Part shown: one piece after another, positions 1-44,590 of the stretch
How the letters are laid out: every line of letters begins with the position of its first letter
Numbering within the stretch: position 1 is the first letter of the stretch
Assembly (NCBI GenBank): GCA_016867455.1
Contig: VGJJ01000001.1
Coordinates: 3,337-67,336 of the forward strand
Source: Candidatus Iainarchaeum sp.
GTDB taxonomy: Archaea > Iainarchaeota > Iainarchaeia > Iainarchaeales > VGJJ01
Length of the DNA stretch: 64,000 nucleotides
Reading direction: 5' to 3'
Notes under the pieces: generated by a model
Told to the model about the DNA's origin: nothing
Databases searched by the model: none
What the model saw: the letters and a program-made list of their open reading frames with translations, nothing else
Made by a program: the position numbers and the translations under genes

Positions 1-312
1 GATGATTTGATTAATTGGACGCCTATCCAAAAAATAAAAGCATTGGATTTGCCATTTGGCCAAGCAGGGGAACCGAATTGTTTAGGCAGTTGGGTTTCCG
101 GCGCAACATTCAACATGTATCCTTCTCTTATCGACCATTCCGCCACCACGATTAATTTTGAAGATAGTGGGCAAACCCCTCATTTGTATTGGACGCGCAT
201 CAACAACTATTTGGGCGCGGGAAATCCAAATGGAAATGACCGTGATTTGGTTCGACAACAGGTAACATTGTGCTTGGAAAACGACCCCGAATATCCTAAT
301 TGCACTCCTTGA
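1..312 (+). CDS. Hypothetical protein, C-terminal fragment; the gene probably starts upstream of the window
   Basis: The reading frame is open from nt 1 and the ORF tool's TTG start at nt 7 is arbitrary. No recognisable motif. Confidence 0.3.
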   Translation, partial: DDLINWTPIQKIKALDLPFGQAGEPNCLGSWVSGATFNMYPSLIDHSATTINFEDSGQTPHLYWTRINNYLGAGNPNGNDRDLVRQQVTLCLENDPEYPNCTP

Positions 313-354
313 AATAATACAGCAAATTATTTTCAGAGCAGAAAAAATAATTAA

Positions 355-1860
355 TCAAGTACAGGTGCTTCCCGCGCATGTTTTGAGATACGTTACACGG
401 TTGTGGAATTGTTGAATGAGTGAAGAATAACACGGGTTCGCGTGCTGGCTTTCCAACAAATACGGGTCCCCCACGGGTCGGCATGAATCCGGGGTCAATG
501 CGAATAATTCTTTTTCGTCCACCACCCCATCATTCGTGTAATCGTATTCCGTGTACAAGTATTCTCGTCCCGTGGACACGTTATAGGTTCGCAGTCCGCG
601 ATAATAATTCACGAGAGGGTTTTCCGTGAGAATATCTGAACGCCAAGACGTGGTTCCGGTTGGATTAGTCAACAAAGGAACAAGCGAGCGGCCGTCTTGC
701 AGCAACCCGGGAGTAGCGGATGCCCATTCCAAAAATGTAGGAGTCAAGTCCACATTCATCACGAGTTCGGGAACAATTTTTCCTTTAGGAATACTTGGTC
801 CACTCATGATTAATGGTACGCGCAAGGATTCATACGCCAAGAATTTTCCACTTTTACGATGCTCTCCCAGCATGAATCCATTATCGCTCGTGAAAACAAC
901 AATGGTGTTGCCATATTGTCCCGTGGCTCGCAGGGTTTGGAGTATTTTTCCCACTCCCTCATCCACGGCTAACAAGCTTTCCATGCGGTGTTCATAATTA
1001 TTTTTTACTTCCGCAATATCTTGCGACGTGAGTGGGGGCAGGTAGCTGATGAAAATAGCTTTGTCGGAGACATCGGCTTCATTAAATGCAGGAGACATGG
1101 GCAATGATGACCCGGACATAAGCCCTTGATGTCTCGGCGCCGCGGGAGGGGGATTGTTTCCCATGCTCAAATCTTCATGCGGCGCTAAATAATCCACTTG
1201 CATGAAGAAGGGTTGATTCTCATACGGTCGCTGCGTCAAATAATCCTGGGCTTGCCGCGTGATTACATCCGTTTGATAATCACTCGCACTCGAACCATAA
1301 GTCACAACATTCGTCCCATCATACACGGAATAATTGTAATACTTGTGCATGTTCCCAAACGTCGTGAACCACTTATTCCATCCCGCAGGGGGAGCATGAT
1401 AGCTTCCACTCGGATCGAGGACAACGTTATACCCATTCATGTATTTTCCCAAGTGCATCGTATAATATCCCGCTTGTCCTAACCATATGGGGAGCGTGTT
1501 CGTGTGATTCAATTTGGCATAGCCTCCCGTGCTTCCTCCATTCGATAACACGGTGTGGTTGTGCGCGTATTGTCCCGTGAGGGTGGTTGCTCGTGAGGGG
1601 CAACATAGAGGGAATGACACGTAGGAGCGGTCAAAATAGGTTCCCCTGCGCATGATGAGTTCGCGCACGTTTTTCATGACCGGCCTTCCGTTGGGAAGTT
1701 TATCAAAAAATGTTTGAAAATCCTGGTCATCCGTGCGAATGAAAACAATGTTAGGCTGCGTCGCCGAGGAAGGGGGTAAACTATTCGCGGATGACACGTT
1801 GGCCAAAATAATAATCGTTAACAATCCCAATCCAATTACCGTATAGAGTGCACGATTCAT
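355..1860 (-). CDS. Sulfatase (arylsulfatase / N-acetylglucosamine-6-sulfatase family), secreted
   Basis: N-terminal signal peptide or TM segment. Cys-type sulfatase signature PLCCPSRATTLTGQY (C-x-P-x-R, the formylglycine site). Length ~500 aa is typical of the family. Confidence 0.85.
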   Translation of the reverse strand: MNRALYTVIGLGLLTIIILANVSSANSLPPSSATQPNIVFIRTDDQDFQTFFDKLPNGRPVMKNVRELIMRRGTYFDRSYVSFPLCCPSRATTLTGQYAHNHTVLSNGGSTGGYAKLNHTNTLPIWLGQAGYYTMHLGKYMNGYNVVLDPSGSYHAPPAGWNKWFTTFGNMHKYYNYSVYDGTNVVTYGSSASDYQTDVITRQAQDYLTQRPYENQPFFMQVDYLAPHEDLSMGNNPPPAAPRHQGLMSGSSLPMSPAFNEADVSDKAIFISYLPPLTSQDIAEVKNNYEHRMESLLAVDEGVGKILQTLRATGQYGNTIVVFTSDNGFMLGEHRKSGKFLAYESLRVPLIMSGPSIPKGKIVPELVMNVDLTPTFLEWASATPGLLQDGRSLVPLLTNPTGTTSWRSDILTENPLVNYYRGLRTYNVSTGREYLYTEYDYTNDGVVDEKELFALTPDSCRPVGDPYLLESQHANPCYSSLIQQFHNRVTYLKTCAGSTCT

Positions 1861-1864
1861 CCCA

Positions 1865-3058
1865 TCACTTCCGTTTGGTCTTCAATTCCCTCATTATTTT
1901 TTGGGCTTCTTTCCTCGCCCACGCGTCCGCGTGCAACACATCCTCAAAGGAAGGGTGTTTGTTATTTTTATGACGCGAAACAACTTCGCGTATGGTGCGT
2001 TGAATATCCAAAAATTCAATTTCATTTTTCAAAAATGATTCCACGCACGTGTCATTGGCTGCGTTTAACACGCAGCAAACGGTTCCTTTTTCTCGCGCCG
2101 CATCTAATCCCATTTGCAAACAATCAAATGTTTTCACGTCCGGTTGTTCGAATGTGAATTGTTTTGCTTTCACAAAATCAAATGGAGGAACGTTGAGTTT
2201 GATATGCGAAGGGTGTGTGAGTGCATACTGTATAGGAATCCTCATGTCGTGATGACCCACTTGGGCCATAATACTTCCGTCTGTGAATTCGACCATGGAG
2301 TGAATAATGGATTGGGGGTGAACCACCACATCAATTTTTTCGGCGGGAATATCATACAGCCACATGGCTTCATTGACTTCAAATCCTTTGTTCATAAGGG
2401 TAGCGGAATCAATCGTAATTTTTCCACCCATTTTCCAGGTGGGGTGGTTCAATGCTTGTTCACGTGTCACGCCTTCCAATTGGTTGAGCGTTTTTCCGCG
2501 GAAGGGGCCGCCGGAGCACGTGATAATGAGTCGCGTGACTTCATTCACGTTTTCTCCTTTCAAGCATTGAAAAATAGCCGAGTGTTCCGAATCAATGGGA
2601 GTCAAATCAATATGGTGTTTTTTTACGAGAGGCATGACGACCGCGCCCGCACTCACGAGCGTTTCCTTGTTGGCAAGTGCAATTTTTTTGCGCGCGTGAA
2701 TGGCTTCAATCGTGGGTTTCATTCCAATATTCCCCACTAATGCTTGAACAATCGTATCCGCGTTTTCCCATCGCGCGGCTTCATTCAATCCAGCGTATCC
2801 GGAAAGGACGTGCACGCTTCCCTTCATTTTTTTCTTCAACGCATCCGCTTTCGTTTCATCCACTAAGCACACGGCTTCAGGACGGTATTGGTGGACTTGT
2901 TTCTCCAATAATTCCATCGAACCATTCGCGGTGAGGACTTTCACACTAAACTCGTTGGGGTGTTGGTCCACAATATCCAATGTTTGCGTACCAATGCTTC
3001 CGGTGCTTCCTAAGATAGCTAATCGTTGATGGGGACGGGAGGGCATGAGCATAATCAT
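1865..3058 (-). CDS. dxr: 1-deoxy-D-xylulose 5-phosphate reductoisomerase (MEP pathway)
   Basis: Motifs LAILGSTGSIGTQTLDIV at the N-terminus, LANKETLV and PIDSEHSAIFQ are hallmark DXR blocks. The true start may be the Met 2 or 4 codons downstream (3052 or 3046). Confidence 0.9.
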   Translation of the reverse strand: MIMLMPSRPHQRLAILGSTGSIGTQTLDIVDQHPNEFSVKVLTANGSMELLEKQVHQYRPEAVCLVDETKADALKKKMKGSVHVLSGYAGLNEAARWENADTIVQALVGNIGMKPTIEAIHARKKIALANKETLVSAGAVVMPLVKKHHIDLTPIDSEHSAIFQCLKGENVNEVTRLIITCSGGPFRGKTLNQLEGVTREQALNHPTWKMGGKITIDSATLMNKGFEVNEAMWLYDIPAEKIDVVVHPQSIIHSMVEFTDGSIMAQVGHHDMRIPIQYALTHPSHIKLNVPPFDFVKAKQFTFEQPDVKTFDCLQMGLDAAREKGTVCCVLNAANDTCVESFLKNEIEFLDIQRTIREVVSRHKNNKHPSFEDVLHADAWARKEAQKIMRELKTKRK

Positions 3059-3210
3059 TCATGGATTGGGTTAAATATCCTCTCCCACCCCCTAAAATGA
3101 AAAAATGATGCATACAATCTACAATTGACGTAATTACCCTTGTTGCGCGTCAAAAATAACGATTGTTTTTTATGCGATTTCCAAATGAAGTAAATCATTC
3201 GACCATTTTT

Positions 3211-3215
3211 GGAGG
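3211..3215 (+). promoter_or_regulatory. Shine-Dalgarno-like GGAGG, 8 nt upstream of the ispH ATG
   Basis: The sequence ggaggattttttcATG is seen directly. It supports ATG 3224 as the start rather than the ORF-track start at 3209. Confidence 0.5.
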
Positions 3216-3223
3216 ATTTTTTC

Positions 3224-4237
3224 ATGAAGATTGAACTCGCTCGCGCCGCTGGTTTTTGTTTTGGAGTCAAACGCAGCGTAAAACTTTCTCATGAGACACT
3301 CGACCAGGGTCCCGCATTCTTGTATGGGATGCCCGTGCACAATCAGCGAGTTGTCCAGAAAATCATTGACCACGGCGGAAAACTCGTGGAAGACAATCCC
3401 TACGCCGCGTCCAAAATTTCTCGCTTTACTCATTTGAATTCCATGGATGAAATTCCGGCAGGAAGCACCGTCCTCATGCGTGCGCACGGTGTTACCGTAC
3501 AAGCATTGGAAAAAGCCAAAGAAAAAGAGTTGAAAATCGTCGACACCACCTGCCCATTCGTGACCATGGTTCACAAGACCGCAAAAGTATTGTTTGATGA
3601 AAAATACCAAGTCATTATTGTGGGCGAACATGGTCATCCGGAAGTGGAAGGAATCAAAAGTTATGCCCCCAACGCGATTGTAGTGGAAAATGCGGAAGAA
3701 GCCAGCAAATTATTCCCGCGAAAAACACAATACTACACGAATGATGAACTCATGAAAGCTAAAACCGACGCGGAAGTAGTGGAAAAATTACATTATCCCG
3801 TGTTAACGAAGATTGGAATTGTTTCCCAAACCACCCAATCAAACGACAATGTGCAAGCCGTGGCCATGGCGGTCATGGGTAAAGCTCGTGAAGTAAGAGT
3901 GTACAACACTATTTGCAATGCCATGCATGAAATGCAGCCCGGTGCGGTGCAGCTTTCCACTCAAGTTAATGTCATGCTCATTATTGGGGGAAGAAATAGT
4001 GGAAACACCAAAAGACAGGCCGAATTGTGCGCGCAGCAGACGAAAACACACTGGATTGAATCCGCGGACGAGTTGAAACCCGAATGGTTTACGAATGTAA
4101 AACACGTGGGAATAGGCGCTGGCGCCAGTACACCGGATGAAGACATTGAAGACGTGATTGCGTGGTTGAAAAAATACGACAAGGAAACGAATCACGTTGA
4201 GAGTGAAATCATCCGCCCTGCGTACGTGGTGCATTGA
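3224..4237 (+). CDS. ispH: 4-hydroxy-3-methylbut-2-enyl diphosphate reductase (IspH/LytB)
   Basis: N-terminus MKIELARAAGFCFGVKRSV is the classic LytB block. Conserved Cys residues and ~340 aa length fit. The stop overlaps the next gene. Confidence 0.9.
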   Translation: MKIELARAAGFCFGVKRSVKLSHETLDQGPAFLYGMPVHNQRVVQKIIDHGGKLVEDNPYAASKISRFTHLNSMDEIPAGSTVLMRAHGVTVQALEKAKEKELKIVDTTCPFVTMVHKTAKVLFDEKYQVIIVGEHGHPEVEGIKSYAPNAIVVENAEEASKLFPRKTQYYTNDELMKAKTDAEVVEKLHYPVLTKIGIVSQTTQSNDNVQAVAMAVMGKAREVRVYNTICNAMHEMQPGAVQLSTQVNVMLIIGGRNSGNTKRQAELCAQQTKTHWIESADELKPEWFTNVKHVGIGAGASTPDEDIEDVIAWLKKYDKETNHVESEIIRPAYVVH

Positions 4238-4251
4238 AGAAGGTAAATTCC

Positions 4252-5142
4252 ATGCCTTCCTCGCTCACTCTTTCTTCTCCCGCTAAACTCACGCTGGTAC
4301 TGGATATTATCCGCAAGCGCGAGGATGGTTATCATGAAGTCGAATTAGTGCTGCAGGAATTGGCCATCCACGACACGATAACCATTGAAGCGCTTCCTCA
4401 TTCCAGTGAAATTATTCTCTCATGCACAGACGCAAGCGTTCCCTTGAATGAGAAAAACTCGTGCCACAAAGCAACCATTCTGATGCAAAATGAATTCGCC
4501 AGCCAAAATCCTGGCAAACCTATTCAGGGAGTGAAAATTCATATTGATAAAAAAATTCCTTCCGCGGGAGGATTAGGTGGGGGAAGTTCTAACTCGGCAA
4601 CGGTTTTGAAAGGGTTGAATGAGTTGTGGCAATTGAACTTGTCCAAGAATGTTCTCAAAAATTTGGGGGCGAAGATTGGTTCCGATGAAGTATTTTTGAT
4701 TGAAGGGGGAACGTGCATTGGTTTAGGTCGCGGAGAAATCGTTGAGCCTATTGAAAAATGTCCGCGTCTTGAACTCGCTATTATTACTCCCCCTGTCAAG
4801 GTTCCTGAGAAAAAAAGTGCGTGGGTATATGGTCATTTTGACGTGAACAAAGTTTCCCATCATTATTCGATACACGAAATGAGGAAAGCCATTCGATCGA
4901 ATGATCCTCAAAAAGTGGCCGAAAAAATGGGGAATGTTTTTGAAACACTTGAACTACTGGAGTACGCGGTCGTGTTTGCCCTCATTGAAGGGTTGAAGCA
5001 AATGTCGGGCGTCCGGACGAGTATGCTCGCCGGCGCCGGACCCACCGTGGTATGCGTGTGCGACTCTCAACGGACGGCGAGTCAAATCATTGAACCTTTC
5101 CGCGCGCGCGGGTGGGTGGCATTTACCACACACACGGTTTAG
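4252..5142 (+). CDS. ispE: 4-diphosphocytidyl-2-C-methyl-D-erythritol kinase (IspE, GHMP kinase)
   Basis: N-terminus SPAKLTLVLDI...EDGYHEVELVLQ matches the IspE family (compare E. coli PAKLNLFLYI...DGYH). GHMP ATP-binding loop IPSAGGLGGGSSNSA is present. ATG 4252 is preferred over the TTG at 4234 that overlaps the ispH stop. Confidence 0.85.
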   Translation: MPSSLTLSSPAKLTLVLDIIRKREDGYHEVELVLQELAIHDTITIEALPHSSEIILSCTDASVPLNEKNSCHKATILMQNEFASQNPGKPIQGVKIHIDKKIPSAGGLGGGSSNSATVLKGLNELWQLNLSKNVLKNLGAKIGSDEVFLIEGGTCIGLGRGEIVEPIEKCPRLELAIITPPVKVPEKKSAWVYGHFDVNKVSHHYSIHEMRKAIRSNDPQKVAEKMGNVFETLELLEYAVVFALIEGLKQMSGVRTSMLAGAGPTVVCVCDSQRTASQIIEPFRARGWVAFTTHTV

Positions 5143-5150
5143 GAATTAGA

Positions 5151-5675
5151 CTAGCTCAATCCCAGCGCGTGCATGATGGCATTAATCACCGTCATAATCC
5201 ACGTCACGATGTTGGCGATGAACACGGCGAATTCTCCTCCGCCACCTTGCACCGCGGAGTAGGTTAGTTTTCCTGAGTTCACGGCTTGAATAAATGCGTT
5301 TGAAATATTTTCACTCTGCGCGATTCCCAGGATGGTGGCTTCATCTGTTGTAATGACCATACTCGGATTCGTGGGCGCGTATCGTGTAAAGGAAACAATT
5401 TCATTGTTGCTCAACACTACTCCCAGTGTTTCCGACACCCCATCATTCCTCGTCAAATTGACTTGCACGCGCTGATTTCCAAAAATAGCTTTTACGGGAG
5501 CGGGCAATTCAGAAAATTGCTGCGATGCAAATGAGAGTTGTCCCTGCACCTCGGGCAAAAGATTTCCGCTCGCATCAAATGACGCATCCAAAAATTGCGA
5601 AGCATTAATGGGTTGAGCGTGCGTTGATATAGAAAATAAGAAAACAAAAATAAATCCCATGAGAAGTGATTTCAT
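5151..5675 (-). CDS. Small secreted protein with signal peptide and C-terminal TM anchor; paralogue of 12481..12993
   Basis: Signal peptide MKSLLMGFIFVFLFSISTHA. C-terminal hydrophobic helix FAVFIANIVTWIMTVINAIM. Clear similarity to the 12481..12993 product (blocks Q/SGNLI/L..VQ, NQRVQVN/NQRIQVN, SFT). Confidence 0.6.
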   Translation of the reverse strand: MKSLLMGFIFVFLFSISTHAQPINASQFLDASFDASGNLLPEVQGQLSFASQQFSELPAPVKAIFGNQRVQVNLTRNDGVSETLGVVLSNNEIVSFTRYAPTNPSMVITTDEATILGIAQSENISNAFIQAVNSGKLTYSAVQGGGGEFAVFIANIVTWIMTVINAIMHALGLS

Positions 5676-5712
5676 TTAGACTTTTCTCATTTCATTTATT
5701 TAAAGCCATTCT

Positions 5713-7176
5713 TCAGCGGGAACGAATACTCAGTTGTTCCCCCACTTTTTGGTCGAACATGGACAAGAATGCCGGGGCCTGTTCTACTTCTAACCGGCAT
5801 CCGGCCGCGATGCGATGACCCCCTCCTTCGGCGGTTTTTCCTAATGCTACGCACGTTTCCTTTAACGCCGCGCCCAAATTCACTCCATTGCGTACGAGTT
5901 CACTCGTCGCGCGCGCACTGACTTTAATGCTCCCATCCTCATGCCTGGAAAACGCTACAATAGGTTTGTCGGTTTTGACGCCGCCACTTCCGTATAACAT
6001 TCCCGCGACGATTCCCACAATGGAATCCTTTATTTTATTCTCCGCGTCAAAAAAATAATAATTTTCATACTCGCGCAATCCTTCCGTCTGCATGAGTTGA
6101 ATTCCTTCCGCCAAATTGCGCCGGTGTTCTTGCAACAATCCCATGGCACGTGCATAATAGTCTTCGCGGTCTCCTAAACACACGTGGAAACCAATGGTTG
6201 ATTGTCCATTTCGTCCGCACGCGTTTAATACGGTGGAATATTCTTTGGCATCCCTCAATGGAGAATACGGATTTTCCCGCGTGAGCGTGTACACTTCCCC
6301 AATGAGTTCATTCAATTTCCATTCCGGCGTGTTGTGCTCGTGCAAGTGCATCAGTATCGCGGTGGAGAGTGTTTTTTTCTCACTCGCATTCAAATCTTCA
6401 TACGCTCGCCATTTCCCACTTTCGTCTTGCAGGGGAATGTCCAAGTTTTCCAAGAATTTGATGCAATTATCTTTGTTGGCTGTCAAATTGGGGAGAATGG
6501 GGCTTGTGGAAAAAGTTAGATACTGCGCCAGGGGACGAGAGATGCGTCCATATAATCGCAAGTCCGTTTTCACGCGCAACACGTCGGCATCCACTCCTTC
6601 CTGCACCATTTGTTGATTCAATCCCAGCAATCCATTTGAACGGGAGTCCTGCATGTCCCCGCACGCGCCCACTACTCCAATGGAGGCGAGTTCCTTGTTT
6701 TTGCGGGAAATAGCTTTCGCAGTATAATAGGCAATTCCCGCACTGGAAATTTCGACTCCCCCATCTAAACCAAATTCCATGGGATTGAGGTGTTGATCAT
6801 GGGCACCGTTTCCCCGCTGATGATGATCAATAATGTAGAATTCGTTTCCGTATTCGCTTTTGAGCGTGGGAATGTAGCTCGAACCAAAGTCGGTGAAGAT
6901 GAGAGTAGCGTGCATATTTTTGAGTCGCGAAATATCCTCCGTGTATAATTGCTTGAGCGTCACTGTGTTTACCTCAATTTGCTCCCGCTGCAGGGCTTTT
7001 ACCATGATGCTCCCGCTCGTTAAACCATCACAATCATGGTGGGTCACCACCACGGCTTTGTCTAATATGCGCAACTTTTCCGCGCATGCGTCAATGCGCT
7101 CAAAAAATGCTTTAACCGCTTCATCGCGCCCTTCTTTGGAAACAAGGGCATTCAATTCCTGCACGCTTCCGCCCAT
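5713..7176 (-). CDS. DHH-family phosphoesterase, archaeal RecJ-like (GAN/Cdc45-like) nuclease
   Basis: DHH motif VTHHDCDGLTSG. DHHA1-like C-terminal GGGHRIAAG. Length ~490 aa. Confidence 0.8.
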   Translation of the reverse strand: MGGSVQELNALVSKEGRDEAVKAFFERIDACAEKLRILDKAVVVTHHDCDGLTSGSIMVKALQREQIEVNTVTLKQLYTEDISRLKNMHATLIFTDFGSSYIPTLKSEYGNEFYIIDHHQRGNGAHDQHLNPMEFGLDGGVEISSAGIAYYTAKAISRKNKELASIGVVGACGDMQDSRSNGLLGLNQQMVQEGVDADVLRVKTDLRLYGRISRPLAQYLTFSTSPILPNLTANKDNCIKFLENLDIPLQDESGKWRAYEDLNASEKKTLSTAILMHLHEHNTPEWKLNELIGEVYTLTRENPYSPLRDAKEYSTVLNACGRNGQSTIGFHVCLGDREDYYARAMGLLQEHRRNLAEGIQLMQTEGLREYENYYFFDAENKIKDSIVGIVAGMLYGSGGVKTDKPIVAFSRHEDGSIKVSARATSELVRNGVNLGAALKETCVALGKTAEGGGHRIAAGCRLEVEQAPAFLSMFDQKVGEQLSIRSR

Positions 7177-7285
7177 ACGTTAAACATATGGCAAAAGTCA
7201 CTTTTAAGGGTGCGGTAGGCATTTTTCCGTGAAAATCAAGTTTGAGTCAAATTGGGTTTATATTCCACGAAAATTTGATGAAAGT

Positions 7286-7996
7286 ATGAATCATCGCTCC
7301 CTGGCGTTCACCCTGCTCGTGTGCGCCATGCTTGTGTCCATTGCTTTCGGATTATTTGTCGCCCAATCCGCGGAACGACCCTCCCCTACAGGAGAAGTGA
7401 GCCAGTCCCCCTACATCTATCTCATTTTCACTATTCTCTTGTTCACCATGGGCTTCCTCTTGAGTAAAGTTCTCGCGGGGGAAAATTCAAAGTTTTCATT
7501 TGCTGCTTTTCTTAACGTGTGTTTTGCCGCCTTGTTGATTAGTGGCCTTGCCCATGAATTCGTGCACATTCTCCTCATCAATCACCCCGTGCAAATGCGC
7601 TTCCACTTTGGTGATTCGAATGCTATTTTTTCCACGTGTTGTTTGTCCCCCGGAGAAGCACCCTATGAAGAAGTAGCGTATGCTATTCAATTCATGGTCC
7701 TTATTTTGTGGATATTTTTCAGTCGACACACATTCTACAATGGCCGCTTCCGCGAATTATGGAAATATAATTTCACTAAAAATGATTCTAAATTTATTCC
7801 CGCAAAGAATACGAAGAAAAAAAATATACCCGCCAAAAAAACAAGCGAATGGGATGAAGAAGACTTGGAGCGCGAGTGGAATGAACACAAAACGGCGATG
7901 GAGAACAACCTTTCTCGCAAAACAAAACCCGCTCAACGAGGAAAGCAAAGCGATTTAGAAGACGATGTTCAAAAGATTGGCCGATTAAAAGTTTAA
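7286..7996 (+). CDS. Hypothetical membrane protein with Lys-rich C-terminal tail
   Basis: About four predicted TM helices followed by a K/E-rich tail. ATG 7286 is ~22 nt downstream of a TATA-like box TTTATATT (7257-7264), consistent with a leaderless archaeal transcript. The ORF-track start at 7229 would include the promoter. Confidence 0.5.
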   Translation: MNHRSLAFTLLVCAMLVSIAFGLFVAQSAERPSPTGEVSQSPYIYLIFTILLFTMGFLLSKVLAGENSKFSFAAFLNVCFAALLISGLAHEFVHILLINHPVQMRFHFGDSNAIFSTCCLSPGEAPYEEVAYAIQFMVLILWIFFSRHTFYNGRFRELWKYNFTKNDSKFIPAKNTKKKNIPAKKTSEWDEEDLEREWNEHKTAMENNLSRKTKPAQRGKQSDLEDDVQKIGRLKV

Positions 7997-8033: not shown

Positions 8034-11021
8034 TTATTCTGTCACTATTTCAGGCGCGGCCCGCAATCCAATGACGGAACTATTATTGCTGCTCTTGGCC
8101 ACCCCCACTATTCGGTCGGCGACTTTGACAATGCTATCATTGTGTGTAATGGAAATGAATTGCGAGGACTTGGACATTTCTCTAATCAACGCACCAATTT
8201 TTCTGGAATTATTCATGTCTAATGCCGCGTCCACTTCATCAAAGAAATAAAATGGCGCAGGCTCGTACAATTGTATAGCAAAAATGAACGCTAACGAAGT
8301 AAGTGACTTTTCCCCTCCGGACATAGAATCAATATTCTTCAGGCTTTTTTCCAAACCATGCTTGGCTTCGATGAGGAGTCCGGATTCCAGTGGTTTCGCT
8401 GGGTCCGTGAGTTCGAGTTTAGCGGTTCCATCAAAAAACCCGGTGTATATTTTGTTGAAATTCTCGCTTATTTTGTCAAATGTCCCCATGAATGTTTCAT
8501 TGCGCTTAGCATCAATGCTGTTAATCAAATCCAGCACCGCGAGTCTTTCCACGTCCAGTGTTTGAGACTTCTGCTTGATGTCCAATACATCTTTTTCATA
8601 CTGCGAAAAATCCTCCAGCGCCTTCATGTTGACGGTTCCTAATTGCCTGATTTCATGTTCAATCACCGGAATGCGCTTCTTCAATTCCAACGTGTCATTT
8701 TTTTCCAGTGTTTTGACTCCCTCAAAATTCTTCAATTCTTCGTTGACATCCGTTAAGCGTGTATCGTACTTGGATTGGTCAATCTTGATTTCATTCACCT
8801 GCCCTTCGATGCGAAACGCTTTTTCCTGCCATGCGCGCTCCTTTTCGCGTTCGCTGGTTATTTTTTGCCCCACCCTATCGCGCTTTTGGAGCAATGCTTG
8901 ATTGGCGTGAAGCATTCTATCATATTCTTGTTCCACTTGCGCGAGTTTTTTAATTAACTCTTCGCGCTTCTTTTCCTCTTGCTTTCGTGTTTCTTCCGTG
9001 TGTTTTTCTTCTTCTTTTACATGCTTCATTCTTGAGCTTGCTTGCACGAGCGCGTTATCGTGCACGCTTTTTTGGGTTTGGTATTGGAATAATTGCTTCT
9101 CGATGCGCGACTTTTCCTCGTTGAGCGAGTTAAGGGTTTGGTCCATCGTGGTTTGATTGAGTGCATCGCGGAGTTTATTGAGTTTTACTTCTAATACGTC
9201 GAGTGTTTTCTTTTCTTCAACCAATTTTTCTTCTAACTTTTTTCTTTCTCCGATTAATGAAACACTGCCCTCATCTTTTTCGCTCACTCTTGCTTTTTCC
9301 AACTCAGTAATGAGTATTTTTTCTTGTTTGGCATACTCGCTCATTTTTTCCTCGCTCACCGCGAGACGTTTCATGAGTGTTTCCGCGCGATGCAGTGCAT
9401 CCCATTCTTCGTGAAGTTTTTTCTTTTCTTCTTCCCATTTCTTTGCATGCAGGCGGGCTTCCTCAATGGCTTCCTTTTTTTGTTTAGCTAGTTCTTTTTT
9501 GTGCTCTTCCTTTAATTCGCGTTCGCAGATGGGGCAGTGGCTCTTGGTTTTTCCTAGTTGTGTCAAACTTTCCGTGTGCGCAAACACATGTCCATGGTGT
9601 TCAGCGACGTGGTGTTCAACTTCTTTCATTTCTTGTGAAATTTTTACCCGAGCTTTTTCTACATGGGGGTATTTTTTCTGGAGTTTCTCCAACTCTTCAA
9701 CATCATTCTTTAACAAACTAATTTCGCGTTTAACATTAACGATTTGCTTCTCTAATCGTTCACGCATGAGCTGAGTTAATTCATTGGAACGGCGGATGTT
9801 TTCCACTTTGGCATGAATATGGGCAATCTTTTCCCGAGTATGGGTCACCGTGTCGCGTGCGAATTGAACATCTTTCTCTATTTTTTGGGATTCGTTCAAT
9901 AATTCTACTTTTTTCTTGAGGGAATCGGCTTGCTTCTGGCGCAGAGGGGAGATTTTCCCCTCAATTTCAGCAAATTGGCTTTGCAACTGTTTGGATTCTT
10001 CATCTACTTTAACTATTCCTTCTTTGGCGTGCGTGGTGATGTGTTCAATTTCTTTTCTTGTATGAGTAAGTTCTTCTAGTTTTTGGGACGCGTGATGGAT
10101 GCGTTCTTCCGTGATGCGTATTTCGGATTTATTTTCTTCCACGCTCTTTCCCACGCTTTCGTACGCGTGGCTTTTAACGCCTAACACTTTTTGGTCTAAT
10201 TCCGTGAACTCTTTTTCCATTTCTTGAATAGCTTGTTGAGCGTCTTTTTGCTTGGTGATAGCCTCCTCTTTTTTTCCAATCAATTCCACTTGCCGCGTTA
10301 CAAGCCCTTCTAATTTCACATTCAACTCATGGGCTTCCGTGTGCAAGATAGTGGCTTTTGTTTCACGCAATTCTTTTTCGAGTTTTTTGAATTTGGATGC
10401 AATATCTCTTTCTTTCCCCAATTGTTCAATAATGGCCATGCGTTCGTTCAAAACAATGGTGACGTCTTTTACCTTTCGATCCACTTTTTCCAAGTCTTTT
10501 AGTGCCTCGTTTTTCTTTTCCTCAAATTCTTGCAGTCCCGCCACTTCATCAATGAGTTCTCTTCTCTCAATAGGATTCATGTCAATAATTCGCATGAGGT
10601 CTCCTTGCGAAACGAGATTGTGTCCATCCACGCGCAAACCTAGTTCATGCAGCAAATTCTGAATCTCTCCTAACGTGACTCGTTTTTCATTCAAACGATA
10701 CACGGATTTTCCCTGCTTGTCAATGGTGCGCGATAATTCATACGAGTTTTCTTTTCCTTGGAGAGTGAGATTAACCACTGCATAGTTTTCTCCCGCGGGG
10801 GCGCCGGAAAACACTAAGTCGGTTAAACGTGCGGCGCGGATGGATTTCAGGCTTGTTTCTCCCAATGCAAATAATACCGCGTCCATGATGTTGCTTTTTC
10901 CGCTGCCATTCGCTCCGGCAATGGCGGTAAATCCTTTCGTGAAGGGAATGGTGACGTTCTTGAATGATTTAAAATTTTTGAGACGAAGCTTGGTGAGCGT
11001 TAGTTCGGTTATTTCACTCAT
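8034..11021 (-). CDS. rad50: Rad50-like SMC-family ATPase (Walker A, coiled coil, CxxC zinc hook, signature motif)
   Basis: N-terminal Walker A AGANGSGKSN. Central CPICERELKEEHKK hook in the middle of a long coiled coil. C-terminal signature SGGEKSLTSLAFIFA and Walker B FYFFDEVDAALD. Confidence 0.75.
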   Translation of the reverse strand: MSEITELTLTKLRLKNFKSFKNVTIPFTKGFTAIAGANGSGKSNIMDAVLFALGETSLKSIRAARLTDLVFSGAPAGENYAVVNLTLQGKENSYELSRTIDKQGKSVYRLNEKRVTLGEIQNLLHELGLRVDGHNLVSQGDLMRIIDMNPIERRELIDEVAGLQEFEEKKNEALKDLEKVDRKVKDVTIVLNERMAIIEQLGKERDIASKFKKLEKELRETKATILHTEAHELNVKLEGLVTRQVELIGKKEEAITKQKDAQQAIQEMEKEFTELDQKVLGVKSHAYESVGKSVEENKSEIRITEERIHHASQKLEELTHTRKEIEHITTHAKEGIVKVDEESKQLQSQFAEIEGKISPLRQKQADSLKKKVELLNESQKIEKDVQFARDTVTHTREKIAHIHAKVENIRRSNELTQLMRERLEKQIVNVKREISLLKNDVEELEKLQKKYPHVEKARVKISQEMKEVEHHVAEHHGHVFAHTESLTQLGKTKSHCPICERELKEEHKKELAKQKKEAIEEARLHAKKWEEEKKKLHEEWDALHRAETLMKRLAVSEEKMSEYAKQEKILITELEKARVSEKDEGSVSLIGERKKLEEKLVEEKKTLDVLEVKLNKLRDALNQTTMDQTLNSLNEEKSRIEKQLFQYQTQKSVHDNALVQASSRMKHVKEEEKHTEETRKQEEKKREELIKKLAQVEQEYDRMLHANQALLQKRDRVGQKITSEREKERAWQEKAFRIEGQVNEIKIDQSKYDTRLTDVNEELKNFEGVKTLEKNDTLELKKRIPVIEHEIRQLGTVNMKALEDFSQYEKDVLDIKQKSQTLDVERLAVLDLINSIDAKRNETFMGTFDKISENFNKIYTGFFDGTAKLELTDPAKPLESGLLIEAKHGLEKSLKNIDSMSGGEKSLTSLAFIFAIQLYEPAPFYFFDEVDAALDMNNSRKIGALIREMSKSSQFISITHNDSIVKVADRIVGVAKSSNNSSVIGLRAAPEIVTE

Positions 11022-11035
11022 TTTTGATCATCTCA

Positions 11036-11830
11036 TTATTTTTTTCTCCGCGCGTGGCGCGTAATGTTTGGCGCAAGTGGTTCCGGCGCCGCCAATGCGA
11101 GCACGGTTCCGGAATAAAATAATCCAATGGATGAGAACACGAATAAAATAATAGTGAGAATGGTTTCATCTTCAATATTCTGTGTAATTAGTTCGCCCGC
11201 TCCTTGAATGATAGTTGTTATTAGCAGCATTAGAAATAGGAGCACGAGCACGTGCACTAATTTTCCTCGCGTGGCATTCCATGATTGCGCTAACGCATCT
11301 TTGGGCAGGAGTCCCATTCCTAAATAGGTGGGTGCGAATGAAAATTTGAGTATGCTCAACGCAATAATTAATCCTGCAATCGCATTGAATACGGTTGCCA
11401 TGAGGGTGAGTATTCCCCCGCTGATGGATAATTCATTCACTGCACGCAGCACGACAAACAATCCCAGAAGCATGGCGATGAATACGATGGCAAATGCCGC
11501 GCACGAAGATAGGAGGGAATTTTTATTCGTTGAGAGTACGTTCATTCGGCGCGAAACAATGCTCATACTATAGAGCGAGAAAAACAAGCTCCCAAACAAG
11601 AGTAGTAGGGCGCGTGCTAGGAGCAGGGTGTCTGTGGAGTAAAGGAGCGTGTCCCCGCCCCCTTGCGTGAATGCATTGTAAATATCCCCATTCAGGAGGT
11701 ATAATACCCCGTGTATTCCGGTGAGAGCGAGAATAATCCCATACGTGGGGAGGTATTTCAGCATCTGCCCCGGTGCGCGAATAATAGACGATAGCATGTC
11801 ATTAACCCTCAGCGTGGGCACCCAACCCAT
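11036..11830 (-). CDS. Hypothetical polytopic membrane protein, 15 nt upstream of rad50 on the same strand
   Basis: Multiple hydrophobic helices, no recognisable motif. The basic C-terminus RHARRKK is probably cytoplasmic. Confidence 0.5.
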   Translation of the reverse strand: MGWVPTLRVNDMLSSIIRAPGQMLKYLPTYGIILALTGIHGVLYLLNGDIYNAFTQGGGDTLLYSTDTLLLARALLLLFGSLFFSLYSMSIVSRRMNVLSTNKNSLLSSCAAFAIVFIAMLLGLFVVLRAVNELSISGGILTLMATVFNAIAGLIIALSILKFSFAPTYLGMGLLPKDALAQSWNATRGKLVHVLVLLFLMLLITTIIQGAGELITQNIEDETILTIILFVFSSIGLFYSGTVLALAAPEPLAPNITRHARRKK

Positions 11831-11857
11831 CCTTTGGACGAATTTGCTGTTTTTAAG

Positions 11858-11928
11858 GCAGGCCGGTAACCTCCGGCCGCGCAGACAGACTACTATCGAG
11901 GGGTCTTCGACCCCTCACACCGGTTTTT
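11858..11928 (+). ncRNA. Two-hairpin sRNA-like element 'A' (GGCCGG-TAACCT-CCGGCC hairpin, GGGGTCTTCGACCCC hairpin, T5 tail)
   Basis: Two perfect hairpins followed by CACACC and TTTTT. It sits in a divergent intergenic region upstream of rpl44e. It is a paralogue of elements at 22555, 22828, 22895 and 23118. Confidence 0.3.
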
Positions 11929-11952
11929 GATCGAACTTTTGGCAAAAGTTCG
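11924..11952. terminator. AT-rich GATC palindrome TTTTTGATCGAACTTTTGGCAAAAGTTCG (family member)
   Basis: Perfect inverted repeat CGAACTTTT / AAAAGTTCG seen directly. It immediately follows the T-tract of element A. Confidence 0.45.
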
Positions 11953-12002
11953 GGTGGCTTTTTAAGTGTTTTCCATGCGTTTTTCATAGTGCGTGAACCC
12001 GT

Positions 12003-12284
12003 ATGAAGATGCCTAAAACCAAGAAATTATACTGTAAGAAGTGTAATTCTCACACCGAACAAAAACTCAAATTGTTTAAATCCGGCCAAGCCCGCGCCAT
12101 GGCAATAGGAACGCGTCGAAATGTTCGAAAGCACAAGAAAGGTTTTGGTGGAAAGGCCAAGTTTGTGATTAAAGTCAAGAAGCAAACTAAGAAACCCGCT
12201 TTCGTAGCCGAATGCCCCACCTGTAAAAGCAAGCGCTACTACGTCATTCCCAAGCGAATGAAAAAAGTAGATATGGGCGCATAA
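12003..12284 (+). CDS. rpl44e: Ribosomal protein L44e (eL42)
   Basis: MKMPKTKKLYCKKCNSHTEQ...CPTCK. Two CxxC zinc-ribbon pairs. Basic ~93 aa protein specific to archaea and eukaryotes. Confidence 0.85.
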   Translation: MKMPKTKKLYCKKCNSHTEQKLKLFKSGQARAMAIGTRRNVRKHKKGFGGKAKFVIKVKKQTKKPAFVAECPTCKSKRYYVIPKRMKKVDMGA

Positions 12285-12480
12285 TCGGGTTTTGATCAAA
12301 CTTCATGGCATCCCAAAAGGTTTGTCATGCCAGCAAACATTGTTTGCTTGGTTCTCAAAAGTTTGATGGACATGGGCGCATAAGGTCGTTTTTTCCCCAG
12401 GCTTTTTGAAAAAGGCTGGTGGGTATGGGCGCATAAAATTAATTTTAGTGGTATTGAAATTCAACACCACGTCAACTTTT

Positions 12481-12993
12481 TCAAATAAATATTTTGTATA
12501 TTCCAATCATTATTCCGTGGAAAAAATCCTTCGAAACGATTTTGATTCGGCCATCCTTAATGTATTGAGGCAAAGCTGCCTCAAATCCCAATTTTTCTCG
12601 GCTTTCTTCGTATGTTGCAGCGTCTAAATCTATTTCCATGGTTGAATTGGAGAGTTCTCCTAATGTGAATGAGCGAACTTCTTCATCTTTTATCACAATA
12701 CCAAATTGTTTGGTGATAGATGGAGTAACTTTAAAGTTCACTTGAATACGCTGATTATTCAATATTGACTTGACGGGCCATGAAAACGATTGAAATCGCT
12801 GAGAGATTTCTATAAACCCATAATCATATTTTTGCACATCAATTAGGTTTCCTTGGCTATCAAACAAATTATCGATACTCGAAGACCATGAAGCCCATTG
12901 CTCGACTTCCTCAGAAGTTAGTGCGTGCACGGCAGTCACACTGGCAACCAAAAATAAACTAACCAAAATTATTCCAAAATACATTTTATCCAT
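12481..12993 (-). CDS. Small secreted protein, paralogue of 5151..5675
   Basis: Signal peptide MDKMYFGIILVSLFLVASVTAVHA. Conserved blocks shared with the 5151..5675 product. Confidence 0.6.
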   Translation of the reverse strand: MDKMYFGIILVSLFLVASVTAVHALTSEEVEQWASWSSSIDNLFDSQGNLIDVQKYDYGFIEISQRFQSFSWPVKSILNNQRIQVNFKVTPSITKQFGIVIKDEEVRSFTLGELSNSTMEIDLDAATYEESREKLGFEAALPQYIKDGRIKIVSKDFFHGIMIGIYKIFI

Positions 12994-13006: not shown

Positions 13007-15517
13007 TCATTTTTTCATTTCATTTAATCGTTTTTGTTCAAGGGTAAAATGGTCGATATACGCATTCGCACATACCCTATTGTCAGGCTCGCTTGGAATT
13101 CTCATGCGGCTGCACCACTCTTGAGCCGATGATTCAAGTTGAGGAGCCCCTTCTTCAACTGGTTCTTCCCCTTCCCACGGGTCAATGGGTGGGTTATTGG
13201 GGAAAAAGTATGGAACAATTGGATAATACCAACCACAATCAATTCCCGGGTAGTAATATCCAGTAAATGCTTGGGTTGAGGGAAGCGTGTCGTAATTTCC
13301 GCACTGTTGCGTGTTCAAATTGCATGTTTTGTATGGACATTGACTATCTTGCGTGCACGTAAATAATGGCGGAGCACTACTTGGTGGAATAGTAATCGTC
13401 CCCGAAACACCACCCCAATAATTTCCAACAGGAGAAAATGTATTCGGATAAGACATATACAAATATTCAGTTGAACCCACCCCTCGTATGAGTGGAGCGT
13501 CCTCGTAACATTGACACGTATTCGATGTCGCGTTCCCAATCAATCCTGGTGCGCATTCACACAGATTAGTGGTTGCGTTGCATGTTGAATCTCCATTGAA
13601 TGCCCACGAAAAACCGCACTCATTATCGTACGTGCAAGCCGTATTGTACTTGCAGTGATACTGATTGTAAGACGCTGCAAACGCAGCTTCGTCCCATTGA
13701 TCTTCATACGTGTTTTTTCCCGTATCCGATGCTTGCGGGTTCTGCATATTGGCATAAATATTGTTGGCAAAAAAACCGCCGCCGTAAAGGCCGTCAATTT
13801 TGACGCCTTGTCTGGCATTATTGAATATGTGATTATTTGAAATGCGGGCCACATACTCCCACGGCGTGTTGGGTAAAACATTGATGAAATTCAACTCTAA
13901 ACCAGTTGAACCATTATTGATAATTCTATTTTTTGAAATATCCTCAATACTCATTGGGGTTGAAATAGTTGGATACCCATCATAAAAAAATCCTTGTTGA
14001 GCGTTATTCGAAAAATCATTGCATAAAACGTCTGATAGTGTATTTTGTGCTGTGTTGCTTGCGTAAAAGCCTCTTTCTCCATTGTTATTAACTTGATTCA
14101 AGAATGTATTTCGTGCGATACTGTAATCAAGATGTACGCCGTTTTTTCCATTCGCGGAAATAGTATTCTTGTAGAGGAAACGATAGGCCCCAGAATATCC
14201 TCCAGTTTCTCCAACTAATACTCCTTCTTCGATATTATTTTGGATAGTATTTTCTAGCACATCAGTAGAAAATCCCCCTTCCCGTAAAAATAGTCCAGTT
14301 TTATTATTTGTAATAGTATTTTGTTGAATAACAGTGTACTCTTCAAACTTATTGGTGAATGGTACTGAAGCATAGGCGGGTGTTGCACCCAAGAGAACAC
14401 CTATACCCTGTGTGCCATTCCCAGCCGTAATTATATTTTCTTTAATTAGAGTAGAATGCCAGTATTGCTGTGACAACTGAAAATAAAATACAGAATACCC
14501 TTGTAAAATAATTCCTGCTTTGGCATTGCCGCGAATGGTATTTTTGAGTATTTGAACGCCGCTGTTAAAGTATTCCTGCAAATATCCGTATGGATTATTT
14601 TCAGAACCTGTAAAAATTGCTTGGGCCTGAATACCTGCCGTATTTTTTTCTATCCTGTTTTCAGAAATTTCAGTATCAAGGCCATATGTCTCGATTCCGA
14701 TGCCATTTTCTCGAATAGTAGCGCGAGTAATTTTCTGATTCTTTCCTACAGTTGGGATGCTGCACAGAATGGGCCCTCCATTTTGTCCTGTTGAACAAAC
14801 ACTATTGGGGAAAGTGAAATTGGAAGGATACACTCCTACTAAGATGCCTGTTGAATTTTTTGAAATAATTCCGCCGCTAATTAGACTGTTACTTCCTTGA
14901 AGTTCAAAACCATTCGTAGTATTCTTCACCACATTATCTTGATACAAATTATTCGACGATTGTGGTTCTTCAAAAATTCCCGTTTGCGCTCCATCAATCG
15001 TGTTTTGAATCACGCGCATATTTTTATTCGCTGAGAGTGAAACAGCATTCAAAAATTTTCCTTGAAAGGCGCACTTTTCAATGGACGCACCATCTCCAAT
15101 GAGTTTTACCCCGTCGAAAAGATACGGCGACGCGCCCCCATAAATCAAATTGACGCCGCTCTGACATTTCAACGCGGAATTGGCTGAAACACTGATGGGC
15201 GAGGTTAGCGTGTAGGTTCCCGTGCATAAAACATGTGTTCCATTCACAGTAGTGGGAAGAACATATGTACACGCGGGAGTGGGGGGAGGAGCCGCTACAC
15301 GAGTCCCCGTTGGAGTGGCTGAAGAAATAGATAACTGCGTCACATTTCCCGTGTTCACTAAACTAGAAACAAAAAGAAACGCAAACGCGAACACGAGCAC
15401 GGTCAAAATAGCTCCCTGCATGCGCGTGTCTGCTTTCATGTGGTGAAAAAATCGTTCAAGAATTAAAAGACAGACACCCGCGAAACAAGGCAAAACACCC
15501 CCAATTCCCGCCACCAC
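13007..15517 (-). CDS. Large secreted surface protein with parallel beta-helix repeats and a C-terminal Cys-rich (EGF-like) region
   Basis: N-terminal TM/signal (likely start MKADTRMQGAIL at about 15439). Many N/G/T-rich ~22-aa repeats typical of right-handed beta-helix (NosD/pectate-lyase-like) proteins. C-terminal cluster CKYNTACTYDNECG...CECAPG...CQC. Confidence 0.7.
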   Translation of the reverse strand: MVAGIGGVLPCFAGVCLLILERFFHHMKADTRMQGAILTVLVFAFAFLFVSSLVNTGNVTQLSISSATPTGTRVAAPPPTPACTYVLPTTVNGTHVLCTGTYTLTSPISVSANSALKCQSGVNLIYGGASPYLFDGVKLIGDGASIEKCAFQGKFLNAVSLSANKNMRVIQNTIDGAQTGIFEEPQSSNNLYQDNVVKNTTNGFELQGSNSLISGGIISKNSTGILVGVYPSNFTFPNSVCSTGQNGGPILCSIPTVGKNQKITRATIRENGIGIETYGLDTEISENRIEKNTAGIQAQAIFTGSENNPYGYLQEYFNSGVQILKNTIRGNAKAGIILQGYSVFYFQLSQQYWHSTLIKENIITAGNGTQGIGVLLGATPAYASVPFTNKFEEYTVIQQNTITNNKTGLFLREGGFSTDVLENTIQNNIEEGVLVGETGGYSGAYRFLYKNTISANGKNGVHLDYSIARNTFLNQVNNNGERGFYASNTAQNTLSDVLCNDFSNNAQQGFFYDGYPTISTPMSIEDISKNRIINNGSTGLELNFINVLPNTPWEYVARISNNHIFNNARQGVKIDGLYGGGFFANNIYANMQNPQASDTGKNTYEDQWDEAAFAASYNQYHCKYNTACTYDNECGFSWAFNGDSTCNATTNLCECAPGLIGNATSNTCQCYEDAPLIRGVGSTEYLYMSYPNTFSPVGNYWGGVSGTITIPPSSAPPLFTCTQDSQCPYKTCNLNTQQCGNYDTLPSTQAFTGYYYPGIDCGWYYPIVPYFFPNNPPIDPWEGEEPVEEGAPQLESSAQEWCSRMRIPSEPDNRVCANAYIDHFTLEQKRLNEMKK

Positions 15518-22625: not shown

Positions 22626-22652
22626 TTTGATCAAACTTTTTCAAAAAGTTTG
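22625..22652. terminator. GATC palindrome TTTTGATCAAACTTTTTCAAAAAGTTTG abutting the tRNA-Ala 5' end
   Basis: Perfect 10-bp arms CAAACTTTTT / AAAAAGTTTG. The last G is nucleotide 1 of the tRNA. Confidence 0.45.
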
Positions 22653-22723
22653 GGCAAGTAGCGCAACGGTAGCGCGTCCGCTTCGCATGCGGGAGGCTGG
22701 GGGTTCGAATCCCCCCTTGTCCA
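22652..22723 (+). tRNA. tRNA-Ala (anticodon CGC) with the G3:U70 identity pair
   Basis: Acceptor GGGCAAG/CTTGTCC (position 3 G pairs with T). D-arm GCGC-AACGGTA-GCGC. Anticodon loop TTCGCAT. T-arm GGGGG-TTCGAAT-CCCCC. Discriminator A. No encoded CCA. Confidence 0.85.
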
Positions 22724-22832
22724 TCGCCCATTCCGTAGGGCGAATCCGGTATAGTGGGATAGCAGAGCTATCCCACGTCTTTTGATCAAACTTTTAGAAA
22801 AAGTTTGTTTGATTTCCCCCTTGTCCATGGCC
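22712..22832 (+). repeat. 121-nt direct repeat, copy 1: tRNA-Ala 3' end + conserved two-hairpin trailer + GATC palindrome + second copy of the tRNA 3' end CCCCCTTGTCCA
   Basis: Identical to 23001..23121, compared base by base. Internal hairpins CGCCC-ATTCCGTA-GGGCG and GTGGGATAGC-AGAG-CTATCCCAC. Confidence 0.8.
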
Positions 22833-22950: not shown

Positions 22951-23000
22951 GACTCCGAATTACTTTTCTTTTATCAAAAGAAAAGGAACTCTTCTGATTT

Positions 23001-23121
23001 CCCCCTTGTCCATCGCCCATTCCGTAGGGCGAATCCGGTATAGTGGGATAGCAGAGCTATCCCACGTCTTTTGATCAAACTTTTAGAAAAAGTTTGTTTG
23101 ATTTCCCCCTTGTCCATGGCC
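23001..23121 (+). repeat. 121-nt direct repeat, copy 2 (lacks the 5' two-thirds of the tRNA)
   Basis: Identical to 22712..22832. Preceded by CTTCTGA, as is the tRNA-Ser 3' copy. Confidence 0.8.
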
Positions 23122-44583: not shown

Positions 44584-44590
44584 CTATTCT

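Follow-up and report, generated by a model that had tools for sequence, protein, structure and literature searches.

The 64,000-nucleotide stretch of contig VGJJ01000001.1 (Candidatus Iainarchaeum sp.) that was analysed as a whole, here called the window, carries at positions 1865-5142 three genes of the 2-C-methyl-D-erythritol 4-phosphate (MEP) pathway to isoprenoid units, namely dxr, ispH and ispE. According to the textbook rule, which is tied to the 'lipid divide', archaea use the mevalonate pathway and bacteria the MEP pathway. The block is organised as follows:

1865-3058 (397 amino acids, aa) or 1865-3046 (393 aa), minus strand: dxr, 1-deoxy-D-xylulose-5-phosphate reductoisomerase, MEP step 2 (NCBIfam, Pfam, structure alignments)
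3059-3223, no strand: A+T-rich intergenic region between the divergent dxr and ispH, where both promoters are presumed to lie
3224-4237 (337 aa; longest open reading frame (ORF) from 3209), plus strand: ispH, 4-hydroxy-3-methylbut-2-enyl diphosphate (HMBPP) reductase, MEP step 7 (TIGR00216, Pfam LYTB, GenBank match)
4252-5142 (longest ORF from TTG 4234), plus strand: ispE, 4-diphosphocytidyl-2-C-methyl-D-erythritol (CDP-ME) kinase, MEP step 4 (TIGR00154, structure alignments)

The signatures of Dxr, IspH and IspE, already recognised in the initial annotation, hold up in all three cases, as each protein scores above its equivalog cut-off. Dxr reaches 515.6 bits against NF009114 (cut-off 461) and 475.8 bits against TIGR00243 (cut-off 315.7), and its three-domain architecture is complete (PF02670, PF08436 and PF13288 in Pfam). 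The motifs LGSTGSIG, DSEHSA, SGGPFR, HPTWKMG, NKGFEVNEA and HPQSIIHS align position by position with Dxr chains of known structure, the best being the firmicute-like Dxr 6mh4 (363 bits); GSTGSIG serves NADPH binding, DSEHS and NKGFEVNEA provide metal ligands, and HPTWKMG forms the flexible loop. Kept in the window protein are the equivalents of the E. coli metal ligands (D150, E152, E231) and substrate residues (S186, H209, W212, M214, N227, K228, H257). The sequence is 100% identical to GenBank MBM3281719.1. Three in-frame ATGs (3058, 3052 and 3046) are available, the last being the GenBank start, so that the spacer to ispH measures 165-177 nt depending on the dxr start. Scans of the DNA for sigma-70 promoters and terminators gave results no better than shuffled sequence, and these models do not apply to archaea.

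IspH scores 238.6 bits against TIGR00216 (cut-off 187.85); its Pfam LYTB score is 266.9 bits, with positions 1-266 of the 267 in the profile covered. An alignment of eight sequences revealed invariant residues at C12, C110, C231, H39, H88, H138, E140, T203/T204, S259, N261 and S302, which align to the Aquifex (3dnf) and E. coli (3ke8) structures. They include the equivalents of C12, C96 and C197, the three cysteine ligands of the [4Fe-4S] cluster, and those of H41, H74, H124, E126, T167, S225, N227 and S269 are likewise all present. The protein matches GenBank MBM3281720.1 (337 aa) exactly. Together with a GGAGG site 8 nt 5' of the codon, this entry makes ATG 3224 the most likely start of ispH.

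For IspE, the score against TIGR00154 is 220.4 bits (cut-off 138.7), and those against the homoserine-kinase and mevalonate-kinase models, 52.6 and 23.1 bits, lie far below it. The stretches IPSAGGLGGGSSNSA (the GHMP motif PxGxGLGGGSS), SPAKLTL and GSDEVF align to 1oj4, 8ckh and 3pyd, and comparison with 1oj4 and 3pyd indicated that the equivalents of the catalytic Lys10 and Asp141 as well as the GLGGGSSN loop are kept. ATG 4252 (MPSSLTL...) is preceded by GAAGAAGG, with an AAGG site, and orthologues begin at the equivalent position; from homology and the upstream site, this is most likely the ispE start. Therefore, ispH and ispE are separated by a gap of 14 nt, in line with the 13-24 nt found in relatives. 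The 4-nt overlap of the two genes noted in the initial annotation is probably an artefact of extending the ispE ORF to TTG 4234. Judged by their sequences, dxr, ispH and ispE are intact and undegraded; the suspicion that they might be decayed or devoid of catalytic residues is not borne out, since all are full length and the checked residues are kept.

Relative loci (designated by L numbers) were gathered with Dxr as the probe, giving 15 species-level representative loci, the closed 1.05-Mb chromosome CP064981.1 (a complete genome of Candidatus Iainarchaeum), contigs of 446 kb and 246 kb, and a deep-branching lineage. The homology searches give the best 120 matches, and the synteny map was obtained by tblastn with the proteins of the closed genome. 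The conserved map reads SMC-x-RecJ-x-ispE<-ispH<>dxr->ispD->nudix->ispF->dxs->ispG ... TIM->type-2 IDI, with TIM standing for triose-phosphate isomerase and IDI for isopentenyl-diphosphate isomerase (type-2 IDI, TIGR02151 356 versus 281). The full seven-gene cluster with type-2 IDI is found in CP064981.1, and it occurs whole or in part in the examined relative loci L002-L020 (about 15 species-level representatives). All seven MEP genes lie in one cluster in L001, L002/L003, L005, L007, L009-L011 and L015; L012 and L013 carry all of them except ispH and ispE, which fall beyond the contig end. Every relative locus of sufficient length holds the MEP genes that are missing from the window. The window itself contains the SMC-x-RecJ-x-ispE-ispH-dxr block in reverse orientation, with the following genes beyond ispE:

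5151-5675, minus strand: small secreted protein, a conserved gene between RecJ and ispE, no family match
5713-7176, minus strand: archaeal RecJ (NF053576, 508 versus cut-off 360)
7229-7996, plus strand: membrane protein of the conserved syntenic block
8034-11021, minus strand: SMC of the conserved syntenic block (SMC_N, 160 bits)
12003-12284, plus strand: ribosomal protein L44e (best and only family match, E 2e-15, below cut-off)

Across the junction between bacterial-type and archaeal-type genes, the nucleotide sequence of the window runs collinear with L009 and L007. The ispE-x-RecJ-x-SMC arrangement recurs in collinear form in 11 further loci that come from different studies, CP064981.1 among them; 10 of the 11 are distinct, L002 and L003 being the same sequence. 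Even L021, a deep lineage whose Dxr is only 59% identical, retains RecJ-x-ispE<-ispH<>dxr. The space between dxr and ispH is variably occupied in L001, L005 and L012-L015, where it has gained extra genes (a geranylgeranyl reductase (GGR), a methyltransferase and others). The GGR-family gene, found between ispH and dxr in L001 and L012-L015, ties the cluster to the synthesis of saturated isoprenoids, i.e. archaeal lipids.

The host is, by its RecJ, L44e and SMC, the source names and the occurrence of the same junction in CP064981.1, a DPANN archaeon of the phylum Iainarchaeota (Diapherotrites). Identical copies of the window Dxr, IspH, sulfatase and RecJ stand in GenBank among MBM3281718-MBM3281723, filed under Candidatus Diapherotrites archaeon (UniProt: Candidatus Iainarchaeum sp.) with a contig of 70,254 bp. 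SMC scores higher with the archaeal-type model SMC_prok_A (561 bits) than with prok_B (452 bits), both values being below cut-off. The initial annotation had named rpl44e, GGR and a GAN-like RecJ as archaeal markers on the same contig. The first stands as the only family match of its ORF, albeit a sub-threshold one, and the second is confirmed by TIGR02032 (199 versus 158.8). RecJ is indeed of the archaeal type, but the GAN-specific model yields only 295 against a cut-off of 850, and the GAN label was thus too specific.

Some features of the relative loci deserve mention in their own right. Most Iainarchaeota loci that span the ispD-ispF interval have a Nudix gene there (L001, 12257-12793), and L026 has one near the cluster (3880-4443). 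This recurrent association suggests a role in the pathway, as an isomerase or a diphosphatase. Assignment of the conserved Nudix protein as a bona fide IDI-1 was rejected because it scores below threshold with the IDI-1 and YfcD models (53.6 versus 127; in L026, 76.9 versus 127), so it is IDI1-like only. L021 has a YjbQ gene and a RuBisCO large-subunit gene (14046-15344), not a Nudix gene, between ispD and ispF, and its RecJ (3772-6726, 984 aa) carries an intein with a LAGLIDADG domain. The match to RecJ in L010 (3298-6234) is split in two with 1.4 kb in between, perhaps by another intein. L016 (JAGVNS010000056.1), a 4.6-kb contig with an Iainarchaeota-type ispH<>dxr pair, was deposited as 'Thaumarchaeota archaeon' and is probably mis-binned or mislabelled.

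In base composition the MEP genes do not stand out from their surroundings. The GC content of dxr, ispH and ispE is 0.46-0.47, and GC, GC at third codon positions (GC3) and the distance in relative synonymous codon usage (RSCU) all rank mid-range among 47 window genes. Between pairs of loci, the identity of the MEP enzymes varies with that of RecJ (Pearson correlation 0.59-0.93), and IspH is more conserved than RecJ (mean identity 84% versus 75%). In a neighbour-joining (NJ) tree of 119 full-length Dxr sequences from the best 120 matches, computed without support values, the 27 Iainarchaeota sequences form one clade, i.e. they are monophyletic, and this clade stands apart from a large clade with Woesearchaeota-named sequences, from Bacteroidota and from Clostridia. 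The IspH proteins of the Iainarchaeota clade are 73-90% identical and all have 337 aa; among the matches listed there follows a gap to 45-49% (three 303-aa proteins), and the rest reach at most 43%. The best bacterial identities among these matches are 53-56% for Dxr and at most 43% for IspH, as against 59-92% for about 27 Iainarchaeota Dxr orthologues with conserved synteny. When the IspH sequences are aligned, three additions become apparent in the clade, a 16-aa insertion (residues 58-73), a 26-aa insertion (165-190) and a 20-aa C-terminal extension (318-337). The 16-aa insertion occurs only in this clade, the 26-aa insertion is shared only with the L026 group, and all three are highly conserved within the clade. 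From synteny, composition and identities taken together, the acquisition of the MEP genes is ancient and clade-wide, not specific to this genome.

It is probable that the window derives from a DPANN archaeon of the Iainarchaeota in which the predicted-functional dxr, ispH and ispE form the proximal part of a clade-wide cluster, captured by an ancestor and since then mostly inherited vertically. The cluster, foreign to the canonical archaeal repertoire, would have reached the ancestor of the clade ultimately from bacteria. The cluster would then have settled beside RecJ and SMC and been passed on mostly vertically under purifying selection. In the proposed pathway, Dxs would condense pyruvate and glyceraldehyde 3-phosphate (GAP) to 1-deoxy-D-xylulose 5-phosphate (DXP), the TIM gene adjoining the cluster in relatives; Dxr would use NADPH and a divalent metal to reduce and rearrange DXP to MEP; IspD, IspE and IspF would lead on to 2-C-methyl-D-erythritol 2,4-cyclodiphosphate (MEcPP); and the [4Fe-4S] enzymes IspG and IspH would convert MEcPP into isopentenyl diphosphate (IPP) and dimethylallyl diphosphate (DMAPP). 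Type-2 IDI, and possibly the IDI1-like Nudix protein too, would balance IPP and DMAPP, and the isoprenoid units would feed prenyl and archaeal lipid synthesis (GGR). Enzymatic activity and flux through the pathway are predicted from the intact genes, which may have replaced mevalonate genes or may coexist with them.

At the left end of the window, the region downstream of dxr contains the following:

355-1860, minus strand: sulfatase (Pfam Sulfatase, 152 bits), directly 3' of dxr, not a pathway gene
1-312, opposite direction to the sulfatase: C-terminus only of a converging ORF, 40% identical to the C-terminus of the L012 784-aa secreted protein

The closest species representative, L020 (about 85% nucleotide identity, 93% Dxr identity), has the order dxr-sulfatase-ispD-nudix-ispF-dxs, and the nucleotide homology between the window and L020 ends exactly at 355, the stop codon of the sulfatase. 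The 784-aa secreted protein of L012 has its gene in the dxr-ispD gap, in opposite orientation. In relatives, the dxr-ispD gap is a variable insertion spot (L010, L012, L013, L020, L021). Since this gap is variable and the left-end ORF has a homologue within it, ispD-ispG may lie just beyond the window, outside which the contig has about 6 kb more, and this we consider plausible; the presence of the other four MEP genes in this particular genome we infer from the clusters of the relatives. The gap is occupied by the sulfatase in the window (1-1860) and in L020 (458-1980), by a 457-aa ORF and the 784-aa secreted protein in L012 (2019-5657), and by an FG-GAP protein in L021.

A comparison with known MEP systems helps to position the locus. 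The bacterial enzymes (E. coli 1q0q, 3ke8 and 1oj4; Aquifex 3dnf; 6mh4) have the same domain architectures and equivalog-level scores, and every catalytic, metal, Fe-S and nucleotide-binding residue checked in them is also present in the window proteins. The differences are that the window host is an archaeon and that its IspH is a 337-aa variant with two insertions and a C-terminal extension, being 37-43% identical to bacterial IspH among the matches listed. The Woesearchaeota MEP cluster (L023, L024) is likewise bacterial-type and co-located beside archaeal housekeeping genes. However, it is arranged as ispG-dxr-ispDF-ispE-ispH on one strand, adjoins a ribosomal-protein operon, and has IspD fused to IspF, whereas ispD and ispF are separate in the relatives of the window. 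It also encodes a 307-aa IspH, 29% identical to that of the window, and a 349-aa IspG, and its Dxr clade is separate in the NJ tree. In gene order, IspDF fusion and sequence closeness, the window locus therefore does not conform to the Woesearchaeota type. The Micrarchaeota cluster (L025) stands for a further DPANN phylum, one related to Iainarchaeota, in which the MEP set is complete, and a Nudix domain is associated with the cluster as in Iainarchaeota. Here the order is dxs-dxr-ispG-ispD-ispF, with an IspH-Nudix fusion (11168-12400) and a polyprenyl synthase on the other strand; the IspH is 36% identical to that of the window, and the 15-kb locus contains no ispE. The Nudix domain of L025 is fused to the C-terminus of IspH. 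In L026 (Logan SRR14699982; probably archaeal), the core genes follow the very same order and directions, ispE<-ispH<>dxr->ispD->ispF->dxs->ispG; this contig shares the 26-aa IspH insertion with Iainarchaeota, has an IDI1-like Nudix gene nearby and carries an archaeal-type D-aminoacyl-tRNA deacylase. Its enzymes are 29-49% identical, and it is without the RecJ/SMC flank, the 16-aa IspH insertion and the C-terminal extension. L026 may represent a sister or donor lineage.

Several observations weigh against an intact, vertically inherited pathway in this genome. The window holds only three of the seven MEP genes, after dxr it has a sulfatase and then the tail of the converging ORF where most relatives have ispD, and among the matches listed for the L020 IspD query none is attributable to the window contig or to its metagenome-assembled genome (MAG). 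The Dxr tree, suggested in the initial annotation as a means to identify the donor, recovers the Iainarchaeota clade but, lacking support values, points to no donor. Affinities within the clade are mosaic: L019 is the closest match of the window RecJ (88%) and IspE (75%), L011 that of IspH (95%), and Dxr is nearest to L020 and L005-L007 (84-93%). Inheritance was thus not strictly vertical gene by gene, and the pattern suggests that members of the clade have recombined around the dxr<>ispH spacer. Moreover, a 2024 survey reported mevalonate genes, not MEP genes, in its Iainarchaeota MAGs (PMC10936187), and other Diapherotrites/Iainarchaeota have been reported with mevalonate genes (PMC6107057, PMC10936187). 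One could therefore imagine that the cluster is broken here and the pathway incomplete, the three genes being a remnant or being fed by host intermediates, in keeping with the symbiotic lifestyle of DPANN archaea. No dxs, ispD, ispF or ispG came up when 47 of the large ORFs in the window (at least 120 aa) were scanned with Pfam, and tblastn with the IspD, IspF, Dxs, IspG, IDI2 and TIM of the relative found none further. The initial annotation was thus right to place these four genes outside the window and to call the complete pathway unproven in this genome. Yet the three genes that are there are full length with invariant catalytic residues, the nearest species carries ispD right behind the same sulfatase, the left-end ORF resembles a gene that precedes ispD in L012, and MAGs are usually incomplete. 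We consequently regard a broken cluster as unlikely.

It is scarcely conceivable that bacterial and archaeal DNA were joined into a chimeric contig or that the MEP block is a binning contamination, even though bacterial-type pathway genes adjoin archaeal genes in data from a MAG and the homology with L020 breaks off abruptly at 355. This break lies beyond dxr, at the variable dxr-ispD spot, and the ispE-x-RecJ-x-SMC junction is found in loci from different projects, including a closed chromosome. The mixed or mis-assembled contig considered in the initial annotation is refuted by this recurrence, and GC and codon usage, typical of the window, agree with that. On the grounds of conserved synteny and typical composition, a chimeric assembly was rejected. 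Equally improbable is that this genome alone acquired the genes recently from a bacterium sharing its habitat. Bacteroidota, Patescibacteria and Clostridia, the named non-archaeal groups with the closest Dxr, do live in similar environments, but their proteins are far more distant than the syntenic Iainarchaeota orthologues, and the codon usage is ameliorated; in view of the conservation across the clade, a recent transfer was rejected as well. More serious, if rather doubtful, is the idea that the Iainarchaeota cluster shares one origin with the Woesearchaeota and Micrarchaeota clusters, through ancient DPANN ancestry or archaeon-to-archaeon transfer. The next-best Dxr and IspD matches include Woesearchaeota, Micrarchaeota and Nanoarchaeota, the probably archaeal L026 combines the identical core order with the shared 26-aa IspH insertion, and an IDI1-like Nudix gene accompanies the cluster in Iainarchaeota, L026 and Micrarchaeota. 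On the other hand, gene order and fusion state differ in Woesearchaeota and Micrarchaeota, their IspH proteins are no closer than those of bacteria, and the NJ tree keeps the Dxr clades apart. A horizontal acquisition by an archaeon, one of the options in the initial annotation, is supported by the recurrent junction, the typical composition and the intact genes. A more far-reaching version of the ancestral capture can be put forward tentatively, as a possibility short of an even chance. It holds that the bacterial MEP pathway supplies the isoprenoid units of an entire clade of Iainarchaeota and, through them, its archaeal membrane lipids. The pathway would have been gained in a single ancient capture independent of the Woesearchaeota and Micrarchaeota events, and inherited as a super-cluster with recruited archaeal isoprenoid genes (type-2 IDI, GGR, IDI1-like Nudix) and its own IspH variant, and it may fully replace the mevalonate pathway.

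MEP genes have been described in 'a few DPANN', with transfer from Fibrobacteres-Chlorobi-Bacteroidetes (FCB) bacteria inferred (PMC6107057), and in 52 monophyletic Woesearchaeota, where they are co-located (PMC8204110, citing Castelle & Banfield 2018; PMC8421398). The pathway was also found in three Micrarchaeota orders, and according to the same paper it had until then been known only from Woesearchaeales (PMC12892359). Our literature search found no description of MEP genes in Iainarchaeota/Diapherotrites; a mention in Castelle & Banfield 2018 or Youssef et al. 2015 is possible. The acquisition is real but old and clade-wide, and since the occurrence of MEP genes in DPANN archaea had already been published (PMC6107057, PMC8204110, PMC8421398, PMC12892359), it is less notable than the initial annotation had assumed. 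DPANN archaea are a known exception to the division between mevalonate and MEP, and the locus adds Iainarchaeota to the cases of Woesearchaeota and Micrarchaeota: the phenomenon is known from other DPANN lineages, the cluster architecture is its own. This different architecture points to repeated capture of the whole MEP pathway by small archaea. As an old, conserved cluster at a fixed chromosomal place, it offers a clean case to ask whether an archaeon can run its lipid synthesis on IPP from the bacterial route, and whether the mevalonate pathway was lost. The practical value is modest, as the genes are already correctly annotated in GenBank and the general phenomenon is published.

Among the remaining genes of the window, one further candidate relates to isoprenoid metabolism:

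26964-28115, minus strand: GGR-family gene, geranylgeranyl reductase (TIGR02032, score as given above)

This gene, which is not adjacent to the MEP genes, is likely a downstream consumer of the isoprenoid units, judging from its family. Its identity to the GGR that L001 has inside the cluster is only 24%, and the two are different paralogues.

About 28 kb of the window (35600-63800) are rich in glycosyltransferases, sugar epimerases, dehydratases and flippase-like proteins. Radical-SAM genes lie in this region as well; three are of the B12-binding type (40937-42391, 47618-49249, 58000-59529), and in another (44297-45703) no B12 domain was detected. The gene at 40937-42391, the only one of these scanned against NCBIfam, has HpnJ as its best match, below cut-off. 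The small secreted proteins encoded at 5151-5675 and 12481-12993 match no family; by eye they look paralogous, the motif ...PVK.I..NQR.QVN... being present in both. Three tRNAs are encoded in the window. The 3' end of one of them, tRNA-Ala (22651-22725), is overlapped by the first copy of a 126-nt direct repeat (22707-22832 and 22996-23121; 98% identical, 289 nt apart), which may be an integration remnant.

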